Positions 4,499-63,512 of a DNA stretch of 64,000 bases are shown here, piece by piece. The stretch is from the IMG/VR virus record IMGVR_UViG_3300009157_000001, positions 62,635 to 126,634 of that record. The stretch is one strand, 5' to 3'. Under the pieces are notes generated by a model, which made no database searches, was not told where the DNA came from, and was given only the letters and a program-made list of their open reading frames with translations. Origin of the DNA: a virus. Position 1 is the first letter of the stretch. Every line of letters begins with the position of its first letter. The position numbers and the translations under genes were made by a program.

Positions 4499-5665
4499 TT
4501 AAGCAGCTACTGTTATAGAGTTTTCTCCCTTTATAAGATCAGCAGCATAAATCTGAAGATTTGTGGTGATCCTTTTGAAGAACAACTGAAGACTCTTTTC
4601 AGATACTATAGACTCAATTATCTCCCTTATATCTGCAGGACAAGAAGCATTTCTCAGTCCACAGATCTGATCTATAACAAACTCATTAGTACCTTCCCCA
4701 AAAATAGCTTTTCTTATACCAATAGTGAACCTTTTACTATAGTCATGGATAGGAGAAGGAGTATAACTAATAACAAAATAAGATAAGTCCTTAATTCTGT
4801 TTCTGTAGTTAGTATAAACACAATGACTCATCTCCTTCCCTTCTCTGAATAATTCCCGATCACTGGTTATCAAACAGAAGCCTTCAGGTAGTTCTGGTAT
4901 TTTACCATAACCAAAATCTGTATCTGGAATACTCATTACCTCATATTCCATGAGTTTTCTGGTCATTCTCTGATGTTCTTCTTCCAATCTCTTCTTGCTC
5001 CACCTGTGATCTACCTTTTCCCCAAGCATCATTGCTTGGTCTAGGATATCTTTGTATTGACTACCCTCAGGTTCTCCCTCTTCCACTATATGCTTCAAGT
5101 AAGCTGCTGGGTTCTTTGCTTGTTTGAGAAATCTGCTGTAATAAGCAAGAGTTGTATTTGGAGCCTCCTGAGCTAACTTATAGAAATACTTTGGAGAAAG
5201 TCCTTTTATCTTAAGACTTGTAGATACCCACCTCCTTATAAGCTGGGTAGGGTTAGTAATCTTTTTGCTTAGGATCAATCCTAAGGTAGTATCTGTGATT
5301 ACTTGTGTAATAGAATGAGGAAGTATGCAGACCCATTCATTACCTGTATATTTGAAAAGTTCACAGATAGCATGTATATTCTTACCTGTTTTTCCAAACC
5401 AGGTTTTGACCTTCCTTGTCTTTTTGTCATAAGACATACCAGATCGGACTTTGTCCCGTCTGTAAAAGGCTGTACCAAATCCTACTACTACTTCTTTACT
5501 GGAAAAACAGATCTTCTCGTCATTTTCATAGATCTCTTTATAAGTCATCCCAGTAAACTTCTTAGAAAAGACCATCCATCTCTGAACATCGGGAGCAAAC
5601 TCCTTTATCTTACTAAGAAGGTCCCAGTTCTCTCCAACGGTATTTACAAGTATTCTTTTTTCCAT
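4499..5665 (-). CDS. PcfJ-like domain protein
   Basis: C-terminal ELFREGKEMSHCVYTNY and DQICGLRN motifs; likely start MEKRIL at 5665 avoids overlap (track gives 5782). Confidence 0.7.
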   Translation of the reverse strand: MEKRILVNTVGENWDLLSKIKEFAPDVQRWMVFSKKFTGMTYKEIYENDEKICFSSKEVVVGFGTAFYRRDKVRSGMSYDKKTRKVKTWFGKTGKNIHAICELFKYTGNEWVCILPHSITQVITDTTLGLILSKKITNPTQLIRRWVSTSLKIKGLSPKYFYKLAQEAPNTTLAYYSRFLKQAKNPAAYLKHIVEEGEPEGSQYKDILDQAMMLGEKVDHRWSKKRLEEEHQRMTRKLMEYEVMSIPDTDFGYGKIPELPEGFCLITSDRELFREGKEMSHCVYTNYRNRIKDLSYFVISYTPSPIHDYSKRFTIGIRKAIFGEGTNEFVIDQICGLRNASCPADIREIIESIVSEKSLQLFFKRITTNLQIYAADLIKGENSITVAA

Positions 5666-5730
5666 AAACCTGCTAATTAGAAGACCATACCAGATCTCTC
5701 CAGTATGGTCTTGAGTTTTGTGATTATGAG

Positions 5731-6186
5731 TTATCTTACCAGTATATACCGGTAGAAAGAAGCTGATCCGGATGCTCCCCACTGATCCAGTACCATAGAA
5801 TCCTTAGTCAAGTATTTTATCTTGTATTCTGCATTAGTAATATACATAGAGGTGTCCTTATAAATAGCCCAGGTAGATCCTGTTACAGGAGTACAACTTA
5901 ATCCCTGAATACAGTAATACTTCATGGTCAAATTAGTACTGCTGAATACATTGGATGTGAAATCCATAAGACACTTATCTCTATCTGTGTTGTTATCCAC
6001 AGAAAAGAGAGTGTCTGGTGTCCCCATTCTCCACTCTCTTCGTTTGAAGAACCACTTACCAAGAGCATCCTGCTCCATTTTAGTAAGTGTGGGAGCAGTA
6101 GTTACCGGAGGTGTTGCAGGAGCCGGATTCTCCTTCTTACATGAGAACATTCCCAGCAAGATAAAACAAAACAATAGTTTTTTCAT
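5731..6186 (-). CDS. Lipoprotein, lipocalin-like
   Basis: Lipoprotein signal MKKLLFCFILLGMFS-CKKE; ALGKW and YKIKYLTKDSMVL patterns as in Bacteroidota lipoproteins. Confidence 0.7.
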   Translation of the reverse strand: MKKLLFCFILLGMFSCKKENPAPATPPVTTAPTLTKMEQDALGKWFFKRREWRMGTPDTLFSVDNNTDRDKCLMDFTSNVFSSTNLTMKYYCIQGLSCTPVTGSTWAIYKDTSMYITNAEYKIKYLTKDSMVLDQWGASGSASFYRYILVR

Positions 6187-9439: not shown

Positions 9440-11034
9440 ATAGCCAGGATTTTTAGTAGTTCCTTGATCCTGCTTTCCCAGGTATGTTTACTATGTACCA
9501 GATTACACCCGGTTATGGCTATGTCCTTCCTGAGCTTATCCTGGCCCAGATAGTAGTCTATCTTCTCACAGAGCTCATCTGTATCCACCCAGGTGTCCAA
9601 CTCCCATCCTGGTCTGAAATCCTTCTCTAGGCCTGGATAATAGTGGCTCAGACAGAATGCTCCGGATCCCATAATTCTAAAGATTCTATCAGAAGAATAC
9701 CTCTCATAGTTAAAGTGGGAGAAGTTAATAGCAATTTTACATCCTCTATAACAGTCTGCTTCTCCCTGAATATCATTCATCAGGTTACCTGCTGCAAGAG
9801 ATGACCAATTACCTCCATATACCCCGAATTTCTCACCATATTTAGTGGCCAGGAGCTTAACCATCTCAGTTCTAGCTACTGATAGAGGAAACTGAGTATT
9901 ATAGTTATTACCCAGAAATACTATCTCAGGCCAGGTCTTTTTAGGTTCACCTGCTATAAAGATCTCATTATCAAATCCTATTTGTAAATACTGAGATTTT
10001 ACTCCTAGTCTTTTTATCCTTTCTACATCAGTCTCATTAGAAAAACAAGTAAGATCTACATGTTTACCAAGTTCTGCATACCACTTTTGCTGCGGGAACC
10101 TGACATCTCCGGACCAGTTAACAAACTGAGTATTAGGACACAAAGATCTCATTGTAATGATAGTCCCGGGATCCACAATATTAGCAGTCTGAACATGCAT
10201 AAAGACAAGATTGTACTGATCTGCTTGTTGTGAAGCAATCATCAGTTTTCTTAGTTCAGGAACCTTTCCCTGATAATCTGTCCATTTAATAAATTTATAC
10301 TTAGTTGCTATCTTAGCAAATACTTTCTCCAAAGGAGCCTGATCAAATCCTACATGTAGTATCTTCATAGATTTCTTTGTTACTGAGCTAGTTACAGTCT
10401 GAGTAGTGTTTAGAGAACTTAAGGTACAGGGTTCTACAAAATGATAAGGGCCCGGTACTGTATCTATTCCGGATTTATAGTTTCTTACCTTGGATAGATG
10501 AAGATGATGAAATATCACATCCTTGGAAGGATTGAGTATCTGATACCCTTGTTCTTTTATTTCCTGTGCTATCCGATTATCACATCCGGGAACCCCAATA
10601 CCATAGAAACCAGGTATTTCCTTAATTGGAGACCTGAATATCCACACGTCCTGAGAGTCTTTTCTTACATAATGCTTACTTGATCTACTAGACATAATAT
10701 CCCACCGGGATAATGCATAGCACTGACTATCTGTTATACCCTTAATCTTTTCTATTGCACCTTCTGATGGATATAAGTCTGTGTTAGCTATAATCACTAT
10801 ATCTCCATCCTTGGAGATGTGATTACCTACACTGAACATATCCCTGTACCTTATCCGGCCTTCCATATATTCAACCACGAGCTTCTCTGACTTAACAGGA
10901 AGCTCACAGTTAGTAAATACATGAACCAGGTCAATTTGAGGATGATTTATTACATTCTGAAGACAGGTTGTTAGTTCCTCTCTTCTTCTTTCATCCTTTT
11001 CCTCATACCATGATAATAAATAGATGACTCTCAT
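9436..11034 (-). CDS. Two-domain glycosyltransferase (N-terminal GT-A-like, C-terminal CgeB/Glyco_trans_1_2-like)
   Basis: IIANTDLY, ALSRWD, DSQDVWIF and GCDNRI in the N half; IVFLGN, KIAINF, SDRIFRIMGSGAFCL and HTWESRI in the C half. Confidence 0.85.
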   Translation of the reverse strand: MRVIYLLSWYEEKDERRREELTTCLQNVINHPQIDLVHVFTNCELPVKSEKLVVEYMEGRIRYRDMFSVGNHISKDGDIVIIANTDLYPSEGAIEKIKGITDSQCYALSRWDIMSSRSSKHYVRKDSQDVWIFRSPIKEIPGFYGIGVPGCDNRIAQEIKEQGYQILNPSKDVIFHHLHLSKVRNYKSGIDTVPGPYHFVEPCTLSSLNTTQTVTSSVTKKSMKILHVGFDQAPLEKVFAKIATKYKFIKWTDYQGKVPELRKLMIASQQADQYNLVFMHVQTANIVDPGTIITMRSLCPNTQFVNWSGDVRFPQQKWYAELGKHVDLTCFSNETDVERIKRLGVKSQYLQIGFDNEIFIAGEPKKTWPEIVFLGNNYNTQFPLSVARTEMVKLLATKYGEKFGVYGGNWSSLAAGNLMNDIQGEADCYRGCKIAINFSHFNYERYSSDRIFRIMGSGAFCLSHYYPGLEKDFRPGWELDTWVDTDELCEKIDYYLGQDKLRKDIAITGCNLVHSKHTWESRIKELLKILAI

Positions 11035-11038
11035 TGTG

Positions 11039-11154
11039 CGGGGAAGATGGGAATCGAACCCACGTCCACTTCCTGGTCTAGTCTAGACTGCCAGGTTTAG
11101 CATTTGAATAGTTCCGGATATCTCCTTTATCTATTCCCTCTCTGCAACTTCCCC
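11039..11154 (-). ncRNA. Non-canonical tRNA-like RNA B (116 nt)
   Basis: Acceptor GGGGAAG/CTTCCCC+G, T arm GTGGG-TTCGATT-CCCAT, CCTGG/CCAGG stem with a 14-nt loop, enlarged D-arm region. Confidence 0.75.
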
Positions 11155-11155
11155 T

Positions 11156-11351
11156 TGGTGAACATGGTGGGTACTGCCCCCACTGAGTTGATGAATCCTA
11201 ATACCGGACTCTTGATTGAAGAGACTTATACACCCACACCATTATGTGGAGGGTATTCCCACTCTCTCCCTTTCCCGGCAGCACTCTTAACTGCCATGGA
11301 TTTATCCCTGGTTGGTCCCCAGGGCCAGACTTCTATGCCTGGACCATGTTC
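11156..11351 (-). ncRNA. Non-canonical tRNA-like RNA A (196 nt, encoded CCA)
   Basis: Acceptor GAACATG/CATGTTC+ACCA, T arm GTGGG-GGCAGTA-CCCAC, two 6-bp 5' hairpins, about 120-nt structured insert. Confidence 0.75.
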
Positions 11352-11357
11352 ATAAGA

Positions 11358-11475
11358 TTGGACTATTGATAGGCTTGCAAGCTCCAGAGCGATGATCCCT
11401 CCTCTACTATTGTCCTTGTTGATTTTTCACAACTAAGTGGGTCCTGAGACAGCTTTCCTGATATCAATAATCCAA
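11358..11475 (-). ncRNA. Putative structured RNA domain
   Basis: 14-bp closing stem TTGGATTATTGATA/TATCAATAGTCCAA (one G-U) around several small hairpins. Confidence 0.6.
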
Positions 11476-11480
11476 ATTCT

Positions 11481-11813
11481 TCAAATAACTTTGATAATAG
11501 GGGTTTCTCCCCTTCTGTAGATATATTCCCTTTTTGGGATAGTTTTCTTCTTAGTTTTGATCCCCAGTGCTTTCCTTCTGGCATTCTCTTCATTTAAAGC
11601 CCAGACTGTTTTATCACCAATTGTGAACTCCATGAGTCCATTACTCATTCTGGTGTGTCTTTGAGCATTATAAATCCGGGTCTTTTCCTGCTCAATCATC
11701 TGCTCCAGATCCTCATCACTCATCTTTCTCATTCTCTTCTGATTACCTCCTGCAAACATCATCATTGCTGCTGCCATCAGTCCTGCACTTGATCTCATTG
11801 GTTGTTGTGCCAT
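11481..11813 (-). CDS. Hypothetical protein
   Basis: 110-aa ORF with an A-rich leader and promoter-like ATTG-N18-TATATTTG at 11837-11866. Confidence 0.7.
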   Translation of the reverse strand: MAQQPMRSSAGLMAAAMMMFAGGNQKRMRKMSDEDLEQMIEQEKTRIYNAQRHTRMSNGLMEFTIGDKTVWALNEENARRKALGIKTKKKTIPKREYIYRRGETPIIKVI

Positions 11814-19582: not shown

Positions 19583-20155
19583 TTAAATGAGATTTAGTTT
19601 ATCTATAGCACTCTTCATATCATTATCTGTGAGTCCTGTCTCACTACTGGTTTTTATAAACCAAGGAGCCTGCTCTAAGAGCATATCTGCATCATCATCC
19701 AAAATAATATAAACAAAGTCCTTTCCTAGTTTATTTGAGAACATCTTCTTGAATGATTGATCTTCTTTAAATTCCTTATAAAGATGATCTAATTCCGGAT
19801 TAGCATGCCAAGGGTAGACCAAATGTCTATCTATCCAGTGTTTTATCTCAACTCCCCGGGGAATAGGTAAAGAGCTTCCTTTCTTAGTCTCTGTATACCC
19901 ATGGACTGTGATTCCTATAATCTCATCCCAAAGATCCTGAGGGAAACCGTGTTTGTCAAACTGCTCTTTCATAAGAGTGGAGTCACTGCACCGCCAGGAG
20001 GATGATACCACAATCTTGGCACCGGTCTGCTGGATTATATATTTTAACCTTTCCATACACAAGACATCAAACATATTGTAGGGAGGAATATTGACTACTC
20101 CATCTATGTCCAAGAATATGATCTTTGCAGGGAGTCCTCCGGTTATTGTTTTCAT
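19583..20155 (-). CDS. HAD-superfamily protein (Swiss-Army-Knife RNA-repair-like HAD domain)
   Basis: IIFLDIDGV, IVVSSSWR, RGVEIKHW and YIILDDD motifs. Confidence 0.85.
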   Translation of the reverse strand: MKTITGGLPAKIIFLDIDGVVNIPPYNMFDVLCMERLKYIIQQTGAKIVVSSSWRCSDSTLMKEQFDKHGFPQDLWDEIIGITVHGYTETKKGSSLPIPRGVEIKHWIDRHLVYPWHANPELDHLYKEFKEDQSFKKMFSNKLGKDFVYIILDDDADMLLEQAPWFIKTSSETGLTDNDMKSAIDKLNLI

Positions 20156-22160: not shown

Positions 22161-22790
22161 TTAGAATAGTAAAGGTAATAATCTGTCAATTCCTAAAGCA
22201 AATCCAATCCCTCCATCATATTGTCCTCCACCACATACTTGTTTGGAGGACCCTAGAGAATCACAGATGATCTCAAAGCCCTTACCTTCCTTGTAATAGT
22301 CCAAGCCTCGGGTTACCTCATAGTTTATCTTGAATAGATCTAACTGGAAGCTTGTATCAAGTAGTCTCATTGCAGCTACATGTATTGCATCATACAAATC
22401 TGTAGGGTTAAGTATCTCAACTCCTAATTGTGTAAATTGTCTATATCTCCCAGCCTGGGGTTTTTCACCTCTAAAACACTCCTGGACATAAAACAACTTC
22501 ACATTCTTCTGGTCCTTAAAGTAAGTACCTGCTAATTTCTGTATTACTGCAGTATATTCAGGTGCTAGGCACAAGCCCCGGTCTCCCCGGTCTTTAAAGT
22601 TGTACATAAGGTTATTGTTCTCTTCTCCTACTTTACCAGAAAAGGTTCCTTGGTGTTGTATAATAGGAACTGAGATCTCAGTAAATCCATCTCCGATTAA
22701 GAGAGCAACCATTCTTTGGATCATCTCTCTCTTTTTATTACCTAGAAGGATCCTGGTGCCTTTGTAGCATGTCTCTTTGATTTCTTTCAT
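22161..22790 (-). CDS. Histidyl-tRNA-synthetase-like catalytic core only (209 aa)
   Basis: KGTR, LAPEYT, motif 2 FRGEKPQAGRYRQFTQLGVE, RGLDYY, GGGQYD, motif 3 GFALGIDRL; no anticodon-binding domain. Confidence 0.85.
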   Translation of the reverse strand: MKEIKETCYKGTRILLGNKKREMIQRMVALLIGDGFTEISVPIIQHQGTFSGKVGEENNNLMYNFKDRGDRGLCLAPEYTAVIQKLAGTYFKDQKNVKLFYVQECFRGEKPQAGRYRQFTQLGVEILNPTDLYDAIHVAAMRLLDTSFQLDLFKINYEVTRGLDYYKEGKGFEIICDSLGSSKQVCGGGQYDGGIGFALGIDRLLPLLF

Positions 22791-22812
22791 ACTTAATAAT
22801 TTAAGTTAAAAA

Positions 22813-23417
22813 CTCTGATTAGGTTATCTACCCAGGCCAAACCTGGAAAACTCATATAAGTGTGAGTACAACTATCCATGTTACCACAGATATTTCTGTT
22901 TATCACCAATAGATTCTTTATCTCAGAGCAAGCTCTTATAATAATCTTCTGTGCTTCTGCTGCAGTAGTTTAGAATGGGAACCCGGTATCTCAACCGGTA
23001 TTTATCATTCCACCACTTCTGGTTGCCTATGGTTAACCCTAAGACTTAAGGCTTTAACGGGTGTTTTAAGTCTTTTTGCATTGCTGCCCTACAGCAGAAG
23101 ACACAGAAGATTTTGTACATTCCCAACAATCAAGGTTGTTTACACCCAGCTCTCCAGCTAGAGAGCACTACTGTGCTAATAAATAGTTGAGTCTTTTAGA
23201 TTGTTGGGTATCTACATAAAAAGCTGCCGGTATTCCTTCAAGCATCAGGGTTCTTTTGAAACCACTGACATCGGGCCTGATCCACTGCCGGCTACATACC
23301 CAGTGGAGGAAATAAAAGATGACTGAGGGCATATGCCTGCTTTTTGCCCAGGTAATGACGCTTTTTCAATAGAAAAGACCATATCGTCTTTTGGTCTTGC
23401 AGTCCCTTTTCAGTCAT
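22813..23417 (-). ncRNA. Array of about five closed structured RNA domains
   Basis: Closing stems at 22813-22928, 22943-23112 (20 bp), 23122-23208 (10 bp), 23226-23307 and 23319-23417 (8 bp). Confidence 0.65.
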
Positions 23418-61600: not shown

Positions 61601-63512
61601 TTTCTTCTATGATTGGCTTTATGATCAACCTGATGGTTTTGAGTTCAGTTATCAGGAGAGAAAAATGCTTCCTTTCCCAAGATACTGGATGGATACTACT
61701 CAGTTTGATTTTAATGACTTTACCTCTGCTATACTAAGTAATCTGCTTACTCCGGCAAACTGGGACAACTCCCTGCCGAATAATAGGTTTAGACTTGATA
61801 GAACCGGACCTTGTTTTGCTATAAGGTTTTCCCAGAAAGAGGCTTATATGTATCTTTTTTCTTCAGGAGTAAGAGACTTCTATGTAGAATCTGAGATCAA
61901 CACTGATCTAAGAGATTGGGGAGAAGACATAGAGCAAAGGCATTATGATCCTTATAGATTCACTGATACTCTTGCTTTATTTAATGCTAAGCCTGCTACT
62001 ATAAAATCAGGGAACTATTTCAAGTATGATATATCCTTAAGTGTATCCAGGTTATTTAACAATTTCATATCCTGGGCAAATATTCAGGATAGGGATTATG
62101 ATCCATTGGTTGCTCAGACTTGTTTCAGTTATTATCCAGATAGGGTTATATATTCTCTTCCTCAACAGACTGAACTCAGAAAAGACAATTGGAGAATGTT
62201 CCTTGCTAATAATTATAAGGACTTTAAAAGTAGAGTTACTGCTATAAAACCTATAAATAAAAGTGGAGCTCTTATTCTGTTTCAGAATGAAGCCCCTGTT
62301 CAGTTTCAAGGATTAGATCAACTTCAGACAGATCTGGGTACCAAACTTACCATAGGAGATGGAGGACTCTTCAGTCAACCTCTCCAGAATATTCTTAATG
62401 CAGACCGGCCTTATGAGTATGGTTCTTGTCAGAACAGACTCAGTGTAATTAATACCCCAATGGGGGCATTCTGGATGAGTCAGAATCAAGGTAAGATATT
62501 CCAGATTGGTCAAGGAATTCAGGAGATCTCTGCAGAAGGCCTTAAGTGGTGGTTTGCTGAGTATCTTCCCTATAAAATTCTTGAGAGTTTCCCAAATTTT
62601 GAATTAAAAGATAACACTATAATTGGAGTAGGTTGTCAGGCTATTTATGACAATGAGGATGGTATTGTATATTTTACTAAAAGAGACTTCAAGCTCATAC
62701 CAAATCTTCCTGTAGTAGTTACTTATGTAAGTAAGGATGACTTTTTGGTTAATGGATCCCTTCCTATAAAATTAGGAGATCCTCTATATTTCGAGGATGC
62801 TAGTTGGACTGTAAGTTATGATCCTAAGATGAAGATATGGCTTTCTTATCATGACTGGCATCCAAATTTACTTATGCCATCTAAGACTCACTTCCTAAGT
62901 GTATTGAGTTCAGGTATATGGAGACATAACAATGTTTGCAACAGTTATTGTAATTTCTATGGAATAGATTATCCTTTTGAGGTAGAGTTCTATGCTCCTA
63001 CAGAACCCACAGTATTTACTACAAGGAGCATAGAATATGTCTTGGAATGTTATAGATACTCTCAGAACTGTTTTGATGGGTTTCATGTTCTTGACTTCAA
63101 CTTTGACGAGGCTATTGTCTTTAATACAGAGCAAGTATCTGGGATTCTGAGACTTAACTTAAGTCCTAAGAATAATCCAGCTCAGACAGTAACTTTTCCT
63201 AATATACAGGCAGGTTTCATTAATATCCTATATTCTAAAGAAGAGAATAAGTATAGATTTAATCAGTTCTGGGATATCACAGATGATCGGGGGGAGTTTA
63301 ATCTGGCAGCACAGAGAGCAATCTGGAACACTTCTTCTAATGGTTACGTAAAAACACTGAATCCCAATAACCTGAACTATAATAAACCTCTTCTACAAAG
63401 GAAGAAATTCCGGCACTACTTAGTAGCATTTTTTCTTAGGAGAAGAGTGAGCGGATCAACAAAAATGTTGTTTAAGGTTAGCACAGTAAAACAATTATTA
63501 TCACCAAGATGA
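58653..63512 (+). CDS. Tail stabilization/muzzle protein
   Basis: 1619 aa; F.KG..D..ARNA, YWDDGLNP.R, YLRDEVYSF, GDTYVTR, WTVSYD..W.SYHDW.P; synteny. Confidence 0.8.
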   Translation: MADKIQNTSNSVTRRFTKGLFRDIEDSLLTDGVWTHARNAINNSKTGDLGSLGNEPSNTLCASSPIPLVIIGVIHLDGTRWAIFSTNDTTSEIGLFDEGACTYVQVADDSIGGCLNFKKSNPIIGVSRENEDCTWQIYWDDGLNPSRTMNFDKPPFVETCVTVNNCITCTPNPPEVDCDKLRLARLTKTPCLRVEKGPAGGTLRNGSYYAVIAYTIKKIRVTDYSVPSNIQSLFDHDNVAGSLDIHIDDVDKENYDEFELVIVATVNQQTVAKRLGVYNVRQSVISLDQIKEDLPSIPIELIPLRTPLYDKSDAMFEVGEYLVRTGPATKLDFNYQPLANQIVTKWASVQYPSDYYAKGGSQTSYLRDEVYSFFIRWLYDTGDKSPSYHIPGRAPNAIDIQTVAGADALIEINEGITPFRWRVYNTATVTSLVSSTLPDGGVQVAEGLMGYWESTELYPDDKIQIWGNLCGQPIRHHRFPDNGLHPNTHHINPGATSIRVMGVKFENVQIPLDNLGNPILNIVGYEILRGSREGNKSVIAKGIINNMGQYAIEGGITPRQGYYPNYPYNDLRPDPFLSTTETQGGCNPGTENFTPQASFSRDRFTFHSPDTQFKNPFLSAKEIKVYGELNGVVQGQFTPPDKHPKHKLITNLAFLAAFIGGIGVAMLASNGRRTIRRSGPRPLNEGGSGAFAGPAGIGSWAAPGVPFTGISELGISGVAFNGAYHGVLGGLDAAWYKSGIGVLGAAAGTGPDLAYYTPLQAAGIPGSGIPGMLGYITDIDQQETGLTATPTILRVFNALPTFSYYLGEGTDSILRIIRNLVPYRQYALQYTSQCLYDSFQIPQANNQRRTINDAIYITPSIQDFGGSDRINNLYRSKSVALQTSITFADPLTQDITRQRVGDNPGGVTHVSPLLPFATISSCHYSALKQRIRNQYGQLDGIQQVPVSVCPTTVSPLISPVSATGVLFNGDTYVTRYTEKNSFFFFYDWLYDQPDGFEFSYQERKMLPFPRYWMDTTQFDFNDFTSAILSNLLTPANWDNSLPNNRFRLDRTGPCFAIRFSQKEAYMYLFSSGVRDFYVESEINTDLRDWGEDIEQRHYDPYRFTDTLALFNAKPATIKSGNYFKYDISLSVSRLFNNFISWANIQDRDYDPLVAQTCFSYYPDRVIYSLPQQTELRKDNWRMFLANNYKDFKSRVTAIKPINKSGALILFQNEAPVQFQGLDQLQTDLGTKLTIGDGGLFSQPLQNILNADRPYEYGSCQNRLSVINTPMGAFWMSQNQGKIFQIGQGIQEISAEGLKWWFAEYLPYKILESFPNFELKDNTIIGVGCQAIYDNEDGIVYFTKRDFKLIPNLPVVVTYVSKDDFLVNGSLPIKLGDPLYFEDASWTVSYDPKMKIWLSYHDWHPNLLMPSKTHFLSVLSSGIWRHNNVCNSYCNFYGIDYPFEVEFYAPTEPTVFTTRSIEYVLECYRYSQNCFDGFHVLDFNFDEAIVFNTEQVSGILRLNLSPKNNPAQTVTFPNIQAGFINILYSKEENKYRFNQFWDITDDRGEFNLAAQRAIWNTSSNGYVKTLNPNNLNYNKPLLQRKKFRHYLVAFFLRRRVSGSTKMLFKVSTVKQLLSPR

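Follow-up and report, generated by a model that had tools for sequence, protein, structure and literature searches.

A window of 64,000 nucleotides (nt), which is the whole stretch of DNA that was analysed here (positions 62,635 to 126,634 of IMG/VR record IMGVR_UViG_3300009157_000001), carries on its minus strand two adjacent RNA elements, hereafter RNA A and RNA B. The feature is real: A and B are tRNA-derived, tRNA-like RNAs of a large crAss-like phage, and they lie outside the transfer RNA (tRNA) and transfer-messenger RNA (tmRNA) families as these are defined. Both keep a 12-bp stack of acceptor and T arm together with an elbow made of the D loop and the T loop, and in both the decoding end is replaced, in A by a loop that lacks U33 and an insert of 122 nt, and in B by a hairpin in the D loop and a 14-nt loop. 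An earlier note, made from the sequence alone, had described two back-to-back tRNA-like RNAs directly upstream of a glycosyltransferase operon, and each of the elements that it listed was found again at its place on the minus strand (Table 1).

Table 1. Coordinates of RNAs A and B, of their parts and of the other features mentioned in the text (window positions, unless a genome position or a locus is given).
Feature	Position	Strand	Remarks
RNA A, 196 nt	11351-11156	minus	sequence and folding
A acceptor GAACAUG/CAUGUUC, perfect 7 bp	11351-11345 with 11166-11160	minus	flush with 5-bp T arm
A D hairpin, CCAGGC-AUAGAA-GUCUGG, 6 bp	11342-11325	minus	alternative: 5-bp stem CCAGG-CAUAGAAG-UCUGG
A anticodon-position stem-loop, CCCUGG/CCAGGG, 6 bp, loop GGACCAA	11324-11306	minus	without U33 (G33)
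A insert, 122 nt, three hairpins	11305-11184 (A positions 47-168)	minus	folding
A T arm GUGGG-GGCAGUA-CCCAC	11183-11167	minus	sequence
A discriminator A73 and encoded CCA	11159-11156	minus	sequence
Spacer, single base A, between CCA of A and G1 of B	11155..11155	minus	sequence
RNA B, 116 nt	11154-11039	minus	sequence and folding
B acceptor GGGGAAG/CUUCCCC, perfect 7 bp	11154-11148 with 11046-11040	minus	flush with 5-bp T arm
B D region	11145-11100	minus	tRNA-like A14, G15, G18, G19, A21
B D-loop hairpin insert, 31 nt (B positions 19-49)	11136-11106	minus	sequence
B stem CCUGG/CCAGG	11095-11072	minus	14-nt loop at 11090-11077
B T arm GUGGG-UUCGAUU-CCCAU	11063-11047	minus	canonical T loop
B discriminator G	11039	minus	no CCA encoded
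Element C, third structured stretch	11358..11475	minus	12-bp closing stem GGAUUAUUGAUA with UAUCAAUAGUCC, one G-U pair
Upstream ORF, 110 aa, no family	11481..11813	minus	stop 129 nt before A
Glycosyltransferase ORF, 532 aa	9436..11034	minus	PF13524, 2e-21
Mini-HisRS, 209-aa catalytic core	22161-22790	minus	motif 2, RGLDYY, GGGQYD, motif 3
ORF-free stretch, 542 nt, upstream of mini-HisRS	22791-23332	minus	z -7.6 (mononucleotide shuffles)
Two real tRNA genes, U1:A72, no encoded CCA	genome 56218-56303 and 31112-31181 (L214, L217), outside window	minus	52.8 and 43.8 bits
ClpS adaptor homologue	genome 56311-56742; L214:1594-2025	minus	PF02617, 5.3e-16
Oversized tRNA-like genes	L343:8273-8418; L367:4699-4957, 5628-5755; L324:4875-4971; L325:1561-1689; L357:3675-3783		large-phage tRNA arrays

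Two tRNA-like RNAs upstream of a glycosyltransferase gene

RNA A folds with a minimum free energy (MFE) of -82.9 kcal/mol (z -5.19), none of 200 shuffled sequences folding as well, and imposing the tRNA-like arms on it costs 0.8 kcal/mol. Its acceptor contains an A3:U70 pair, GGAC is missing ahead of its T arm, and the loop GGACCAA remains when the insert is taken out. RNA B is less markedly structured (z -2.34, with 4 of 200 shuffles folding as well), its forced tRNA-like fold reaching -37.2 kcal/mol against -38.5 kcal/mol for the unconstrained one, a cost of 1.3 kcal/mol. After its acceptor, B reads UU-GCAG-AGAGGGAA, with U8, A14, G15, G18, G19 and A21 in tRNA register, and the constrained fold gives it a 3-bp D stem (G10-C11-A12 with U53-G54-C55). 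Its variable stretch is 8 nt long and ends in GGAC, and its 14-nt loop consists of CAGU followed by two copies of CUAGA and includes the palindrome GUCUAGAC.

We built covariance models from B alone (R1) and from A (R2). At E<=1, R1 matched 59 sites spread over 53 unrelated phage loci, and most of these matches, not all, coincide with tRNA calls by ARAGORN; 57 of the 59 are full length, the best one scores 35.7 bits (E 3.8e-5), and both inserts of B appear as deletions in the three alignments shown. The Rfam tRNA model (RF00005) also matched B, with 18.9 bits (E 0.017) over 102 nt for a cut-off of 29, and it gave no match to A at E<=10; in the same search, the two real tRNAs of the phage scored above that cut-off (Table 1). 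B is plainly a tRNA derivative with two inserts.

Both RNAs have the top half of a tRNA, with a 7-bp acceptor on a 5-bp T stem closed by a 7-nt T loop. A 7-bp acceptor flush with any 5-bp/7-nt hairpin is found 37 times in the genome, compared to a mean of 26.2 in 40 Markov simulations, and only three of these 37 sites carry a known kind of T loop, namely A, B and the real tRNA that lies at genome position 56219. By our own arithmetic, about 0.05 such sites with a known-type T loop would be expected by chance per genome.

As the earlier note had anticipated, standard detectors remained silent on both RNAs. ARAGORN called no gene in the window at its default threshold, and Rfam gave no match at gathering scores for A or B (9-19 bits for cut-offs of 29-50), so that known riboswitches, introns, Y RNAs and other Rfam families were rejected. 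Since ARAGORN, even at low threshold, calls just one of ten phage tRNAs with a GGCRGUA T loop, its silence on A carries little weight. An anticodon loop of 7 nt that combines U33 with a purine at 37 is present in neither A nor B, and neither has the G3:U70 alanine identity pair, B having G3:C70 at this place, which agrees with what had been noted before. No Rfam intron family matched A or B at E<=10 and removing the inserts restores no canonical anticodon loop. The identities named beforehand as fatal to the proposal (an ordinary tRNA, an intron-containing tRNA or a known Rfam family) were all checked and none fits: A and B are neither ordinary tRNAs, nor intron-bearing tRNAs, nor tmRNAs. The earlier note had called them non-decoding tRNA mimics; this description withstands these checks, there being no usable anticodon loop in either RNA, and it has to be amended for B, which is plainly derived from a tRNA.

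A and B sit in a 447-nt gap without open reading frames (ORFs) at 11035-11480, between an ORF of 110 amino acids (aa) and the 532-aa glycosyltransferase ORF. The genome is otherwise dense, and three closed domains occupy this gap from edge to edge: element C, which fills the space between the upstream ORF and A (-34.1 kcal/mol, z -2.0, 6 of 200 shuffles folding as well), is a third closed domain beside A and B, so that the entire gap is tiled by structured RNA. The ATG of the glycosyltransferase lies 4 nt after the discriminator base of B, and this start codon is confirmed by the N-terminus of the protein, which aligns from residue 1 with 14 homologues. The glycosyltransferase gene heads a run of methyltransferase and pyruvyl-transferase genes.

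The elbow of RNA A and the search for relatives

The T-loop pattern of A matched more than 120 viral contigs, from which 120 loci were kept and sorted into 103 permuted tmRNAs, 10 decoding tRNAs in normal order and 7 ambiguous or cut loci. The GGCAGUA loop, which had been noted beforehand as occurring in the tRNA-like domains of tmRNAs, is thus indeed found mostly there, but it is not specific to tmRNAs. The permuted tmRNA genes have their 5' acceptor strand 3-177 nt downstream. G3:U70 is present in each of the 101 that were examined, and in 88 of these 101 an [A/U]AG motif, typically AAAUAGGAUCGAC, follows the 5' acceptor strand within 9 nt. Similar D loops are found in tRNAs with a GGCRGUA loop: GACUG-CAUAGAG-UGGUC in L104, AAUAGAC in L117, AAAUAGUCA in L157 and AUUAGUCA in L171. 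Taking a GGCRGUA T loop, an [A/U]AG D-loop motif and an encoded ACCA as the marks of an elbow class, A has all three, and B, with its canonical T loop and no CCA, falls outside. The D loop CAUAGAAG and the T loop GGCAGUA of A seem to belong together as a pair, and this speaks for a genuine L-shaped fold. A model built from the GGCRGUA-loop tRNAs was dropped because the MAFFT alignment had set their acceptor strands out of register.

The decoding tRNAs of this class (L104 of Ala type, L117 of Lys type, L157 for Ile and L171 of Val type) share with A the T loop, the AUAG D loop and the encoded ACCA, and some phage tRNAs contain exactly the 19-nt T-arm stretch of A. They differ from A in their length of 75-79 nt and in their normal anticodon loops of 7 nt, whereas A has 196 nt, the loop GGACCAA and its 122-nt insert. 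Decoding GGCRGUA/AUAG tRNAs that low-threshold ARAGORN leaves uncalled were seen at L104, L117, L131, L147, L163, L103, L171, L174 and L181. Standard annotation probably undercounts phage tRNAs of the GGCRGUA class, and standard finders overlook a whole class of them that is recognisable by a GGCAGUA T loop together with an AUAG D loop.

The other close likeness is to the permuted two-piece tmRNAs of Alphaproteobacteria and aquatic phages (RF01849, RF04321), which PMC9004378 describes as common in aquatic phages. In many of them, the T arm and the CA of A are identical over 19 nt, and they also resemble A in the encoded CCA, in the [A/U]AG at the D position and in the gene order of T arm, CCA, short spacer and GGGG. 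In contrast to them, A pairs its acceptor with a 5' strand of its own that lies 190 nt upstream, and it has a true D stem and an anticodon-type stem but no GGAC before the T arm, no G3:U70 and no clearly credible tag frame, scoring 13.7 bits for a cut-off of 50. When A and B were compared by blastn to the 120 tmRNA and tRNA loci, only the T arm was in common.

Searches for direct relatives of A and B gave little. The region 10900-11500 had no blastn match in 50,697 phage records. The portal protein of the phage has at least 598 relatives in IMG/VR, with at most 70% identity among the matches listed; in 24 portal-related records, including 4 complete genomes, blastn of 11030-11360 found only chance matches of 14-19 nt, and R1 and R2, when run on the phage itself and on these 24 records, matched only the phage itself. 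Pattern scans of viral and metagenome contigs returned ordinary permuted tmRNAs and no relative of A or B. The T-arm/acceptor pattern of B gave first 0 and then 4 matches in genome contigs and 13 in viral contigs; these were tRNAs of many specificities with the same acceptor, so that an identical acceptor and T arm are no evidence of homology. As these searches found no homologues, no base pair of A or B is backed by covariation. Outside the tmRNA database tables of PMC11915505, which may contain odd phage entries, no RNAs like A or B were found described in the literature searched, PMC11915505 and PMC9004378 included.

The glycosyltransferase is itself absent from five related genomes, from which a short HisRS-like protein of this phage (mini-HisRS, see below) is also absent. 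A single-protein search of viral contigs found no close relative of the glycosyltransferase, and an alignment search found 80 loci with distant homologues, upstream of which ordinary ARAGORN tRNAs occur in L221, L247 and L248 and nothing resembles A or B. Among the contigs of a freshwater metagenome DNA run (X1), two 151-nt pieces with about 93-95% identity to the stretch were found, B being left uncovered. One of these contigs spans A positions 29-179 with 11 differences over 151 nt (about 93% identical), of which 6 are listed (A positions 69 and 76-80) and the other 5 lie near the contig end.

Probable processing signals or mimics

A and B probably act as processing signals or mimics, and not as decoders. 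The reading that we favor, tentatively and with less than even confidence, is that both are tRNA-derived mimics of the tRNA top half, that they are cut out by RNase P and RNase Z and that they punctuate the operon transcript. These two processing enzymes read the acceptor/T-arm minihelix, and it is from the known rules for acceptor/T-arm substrates that we infer the cleavages, the CCA addition and the stability of the products. One transcript would run from the upstream ORF through element C, A and B into the glycosyltransferase operon; host RNase P would cleave it at the G1 of each of the two RNAs, the extra base behind the encoded CCA of A would be trimmed, and RNase Z would cleave after the discriminator G of B, to which CCA would then be added. 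These steps would yield two stable RNAs of tRNA-like shape, together with a glycosyltransferase mRNA whose leader has 4 nt. The first role of A and B would therefore be the punctuation and end-definition of the polycistronic transcript; in a second role, the released RNAs may be mimics. The stable RNAs of T4 (species 1 and 2) and the MALAT1 mascRNA type of processing signal are tRNA-shaped elements that do not decode and that RNase P and RNase Z release from longer transcripts; their resemblance to A and B is in mechanism only. If A and B are cut out as predicted, a DNA phage would use the tRNA shape as transcript punctuation and perhaps for mimicry.

Processing would account for the tight packing of the locus and for the retained top halves, and several observations nevertheless weigh against it. 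It explains by itself neither the 122 nt of extra structure in A nor the need for two elements and element C. No homologues were found in the records and pattern scans described above, and the unconstrained MFE structure of B differs from its tRNA-like fold. In the X1 contig, the listed changes break the lower pairs of the first insert hairpin, barring compensation near the contig end, and with 11 differences in 151 nt A is conserved no better than an adjacent coding stretch, which has 7 in 150 nt. No RNA run contains the stretch, so that cotranscription and discrete ends are what we infer.

An alternative that we consider rather unlikely, if still the strongest of the competing ones, is that the released RNAs are decoys or sponges that titrate a host reader of the tRNA shape (for example a defence nuclease that cleaves tRNAs, or an enzyme that modifies them or adds CCA) and so protect the phage or the pool of tRNAs. 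Phage tRNAs whose anticodon loops are changed evade host nucleases, and A and B have an intact top half and elbow with altered or enlarged anticodon loops, odd anticodon arms being present in all four tRNA-type genes of the phage; this phage also has an RNA-repair-type HAD domain (PF18143, 1e-23). No host nuclease or defence gene was identified, however, no homologues were found in the searches above, and the loop of A matches no host anticodon loop that could be named.

Somewhat less probable still is that A and B are decaying tRNA genes, in which duplicates gained insertions and drift without function. The two RNAs have CCUGG/CCAGG and GUGGG/CCCA(C/U) stems in common, as duplicates would, and on that basis they may be old duplicates. 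The 24 related records (4 complete genomes) without a counterpart, the tandem CUAGA duplication in the loop of B and the 5-nt block replacement within A in the relative that is about 93% identical are also consistent with decay. Against it stand the perfect 7-bp acceptors and intact T arms of both RNAs, the structure of A, which goes far beyond chance (z -5.19), and the fact that three closed domains fill the 447-nt gap of a dense genome.

We give a low probability to A and/or B being amino-acid carriers, charged through their acceptor by a host synthetase or by the mini-HisRS, with the residue serving a non-decoding use. CCA is encoded in A, and the mini-HisRS keeps its catalytic motifs without the insertion and anticodon-binding domains. 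It belongs to a large conserved family (2279 matches, about 205-215 aa in length and up to about 70% identical) whose loci elsewhere are near tRNAs: among 50 viral loci, 19 have ARAGORN tRNAs within 5 kb, often directly flanking the gene, and 11 of these 19 include a tRNA-His, some of them 86-90 nt long. In five of the 50 loci there are oversized tRNA-like elements, seven in all and 97-146 nt long, whose acceptors are perfect and whose T arms are canonical. In addition, base -1 can pair with base 73 in three of the four tRNA-type genes of the phage (in A and not in B), but by our own arithmetic such a count is reached by chance in about 5% of cases. The bacterial tRNA-His identity pair, G-1:C73, is present in neither A nor B, the mini-HisRS gene is 11 kb away from them, and the x of its GGGxYD motif is Q here and E in the family consensus, versus R in E. 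coli HisRS. An extended version, which we regard as improbable, is a private, anticodon-independent charging system, in which the mini-HisRS would charge the acceptor ends of A, of B and of both odd tRNAs for a non-decoding purpose (protein or envelope modification, or jamming of host translation control) and in which the oversized genes beside the same enzyme family would belong to the same system.

It is hardly more plausible that A and B are functional tRNAs whose extra segments are spliced by an unknown route. Oversized tRNA genes do occur in other large phages, such as L343:8273-8418, which resembles a tRNA-Ile(GAU) with about 70 nt inserted directly after the anticodon loop, and low-threshold ARAGORN offers a tRNA-Ser(AGA) with an intron for B. 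No Rfam intron family was found even at E<=10, though, A without its insert keeps GGACCAA, and each single 7-nt excision from the loop of B, as read from its sequence, leaves A at position 33 and never U33.

Finally, a rearranged tmRNA that enters stalled ribosomes or blocks host trans-translation is an equally improbable reading as the private charging system. Permissive Rfam searches gave partial matches of 14.3 bits to tmRNA (E 0.0011; cut-off 47), on GGAC and the T arm of B, and of 13.7 bits to alpha_tmRNA (cut-off 50), over the A-to-B junction, and a newer permuted-tmRNA model gave 9.1-10.5 bits (cut-off 47), so that for the tmRNA families (RF00023, RF01849, RF04321) every score stayed far under the cut-off. 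At low threshold, ARAGORN called a permuted tmRNA mixing the A insert and B, with the tag GTIQMLNLAV and a stop codon in the B hairpin loop, and the gene order is as in the permuted tmRNA genes of phages. We treat this call as a probable artefact, because its 5' domain lies inside the A insert and the required acceptor strands fail to pair; the 5' strand of B and the 3' strand of A, paired as in a permuted gene, form just 5 of 7 pairs. The self-closed stems have A3:U70 and G3:C70, versus G3:U70 in 101 of 101 permuted tmRNAs, and no SmpB (PF01668) was found in the phage at E<=10 by a search whose control was positive in 12 of 14 genomes. According to PMC11915505, tmRNA forms without a coding sequence (CDS) and re-permuted forms exist, and an RNA of mycobacteriophage DS6A inhibits host tmRNA. 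Like A and B, these are small phage tRNA-like RNAs without coding function, and they act as mimics; in that paper they are classed as tmRNA by homology, whereas A and B fail the tmRNA models and have no alanine pair.

The phage, its other tRNA-type genes and mini-HisRS loci

The source record is 126,634 bp long with direct terminal repeats and is rated complete, the window being its second half. Its large terminase shares about 25% identity with the terminases of crAss-like phages, and the portal, the major head protein and a giant virion protein also match phage families. The standard genetic code fits this phage; an alternative code was rejected, as reading through any single stop codon raises the ORF content about equally. 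The genes in the first 26 kb of the window (1-26 kb) are on the minus strand, and among the ORFs of this strand one at 19583-20155 contains the HAD domain of 'Swiss Army Knife' RNA-repair proteins (PF18143, 1e-23).

The phage has two real tRNA genes outside the window. One has an 8-bp anticodon stem with a 14-nt loop, UUCUGAACCCAUUU, starting UUCUGAA, and the other, which is missed by ARAGORN, has a weak stem with the loop UUAAACC. One starts 7 nt after the ClpS gene and ends 18 nt before the next start codon, and the other ends 14 nt before a start codon. Since these tRNAs are packed against ORFs like A and B, cotranscription of tRNA-type genes with mRNAs looks general in this genome. A candidate structured RNA beside the first tRNA was rejected, the stretch being the ClpS gene. 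Phage tRNA genes are usually read as helpers in codon usage; in this phage, all four tRNA-type genes keep the top half, have an odd anticodon arm and lie flush to protein genes.

Oversized tRNA-like genes are recurrent in large phages, and the highly conserved mini-HisRS resides within phage tRNA arrays. The oversized genes of L324, L325, L343, L357 and L367 resemble A and B in their perfect acceptor, canonical T arm, extra sequence between D and T arms and, as in B, lack of an encoded CCA; unlike A and B, which stand alone, they are inside long tRNA arrays, and in sequence they do not resemble A or B. The only one picked up by a model is L367:5628-5755, with 29.9 bits for R1, and R2 matches none. 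In this phage, the ORF-free stretch upstream of the mini-HisRS gene (22791-23332) has no Rfam match at E<=1, and in other phages tRNA arrays are found at the matching position. One viral contig of 43,754 bp from another phage (L229, identical to L328) carries a homologue of the mini-HisRS as well as one of the glycosyltransferase. Chains of tRNA pieces in a permuted-looking order were also seen in two contigs of Flavobacteriaceae metagenome-assembled genomes (L306:3370-4230 and L307:600-760) and in a 105-kb viral contig (L310). In these chains, a T arm and 3' acceptor strand are followed after 5-24 nt by a complementary 5' acceptor strand and a D arm, with 7 of 7 pairs in several cases and long inserts after the anticodon stems.

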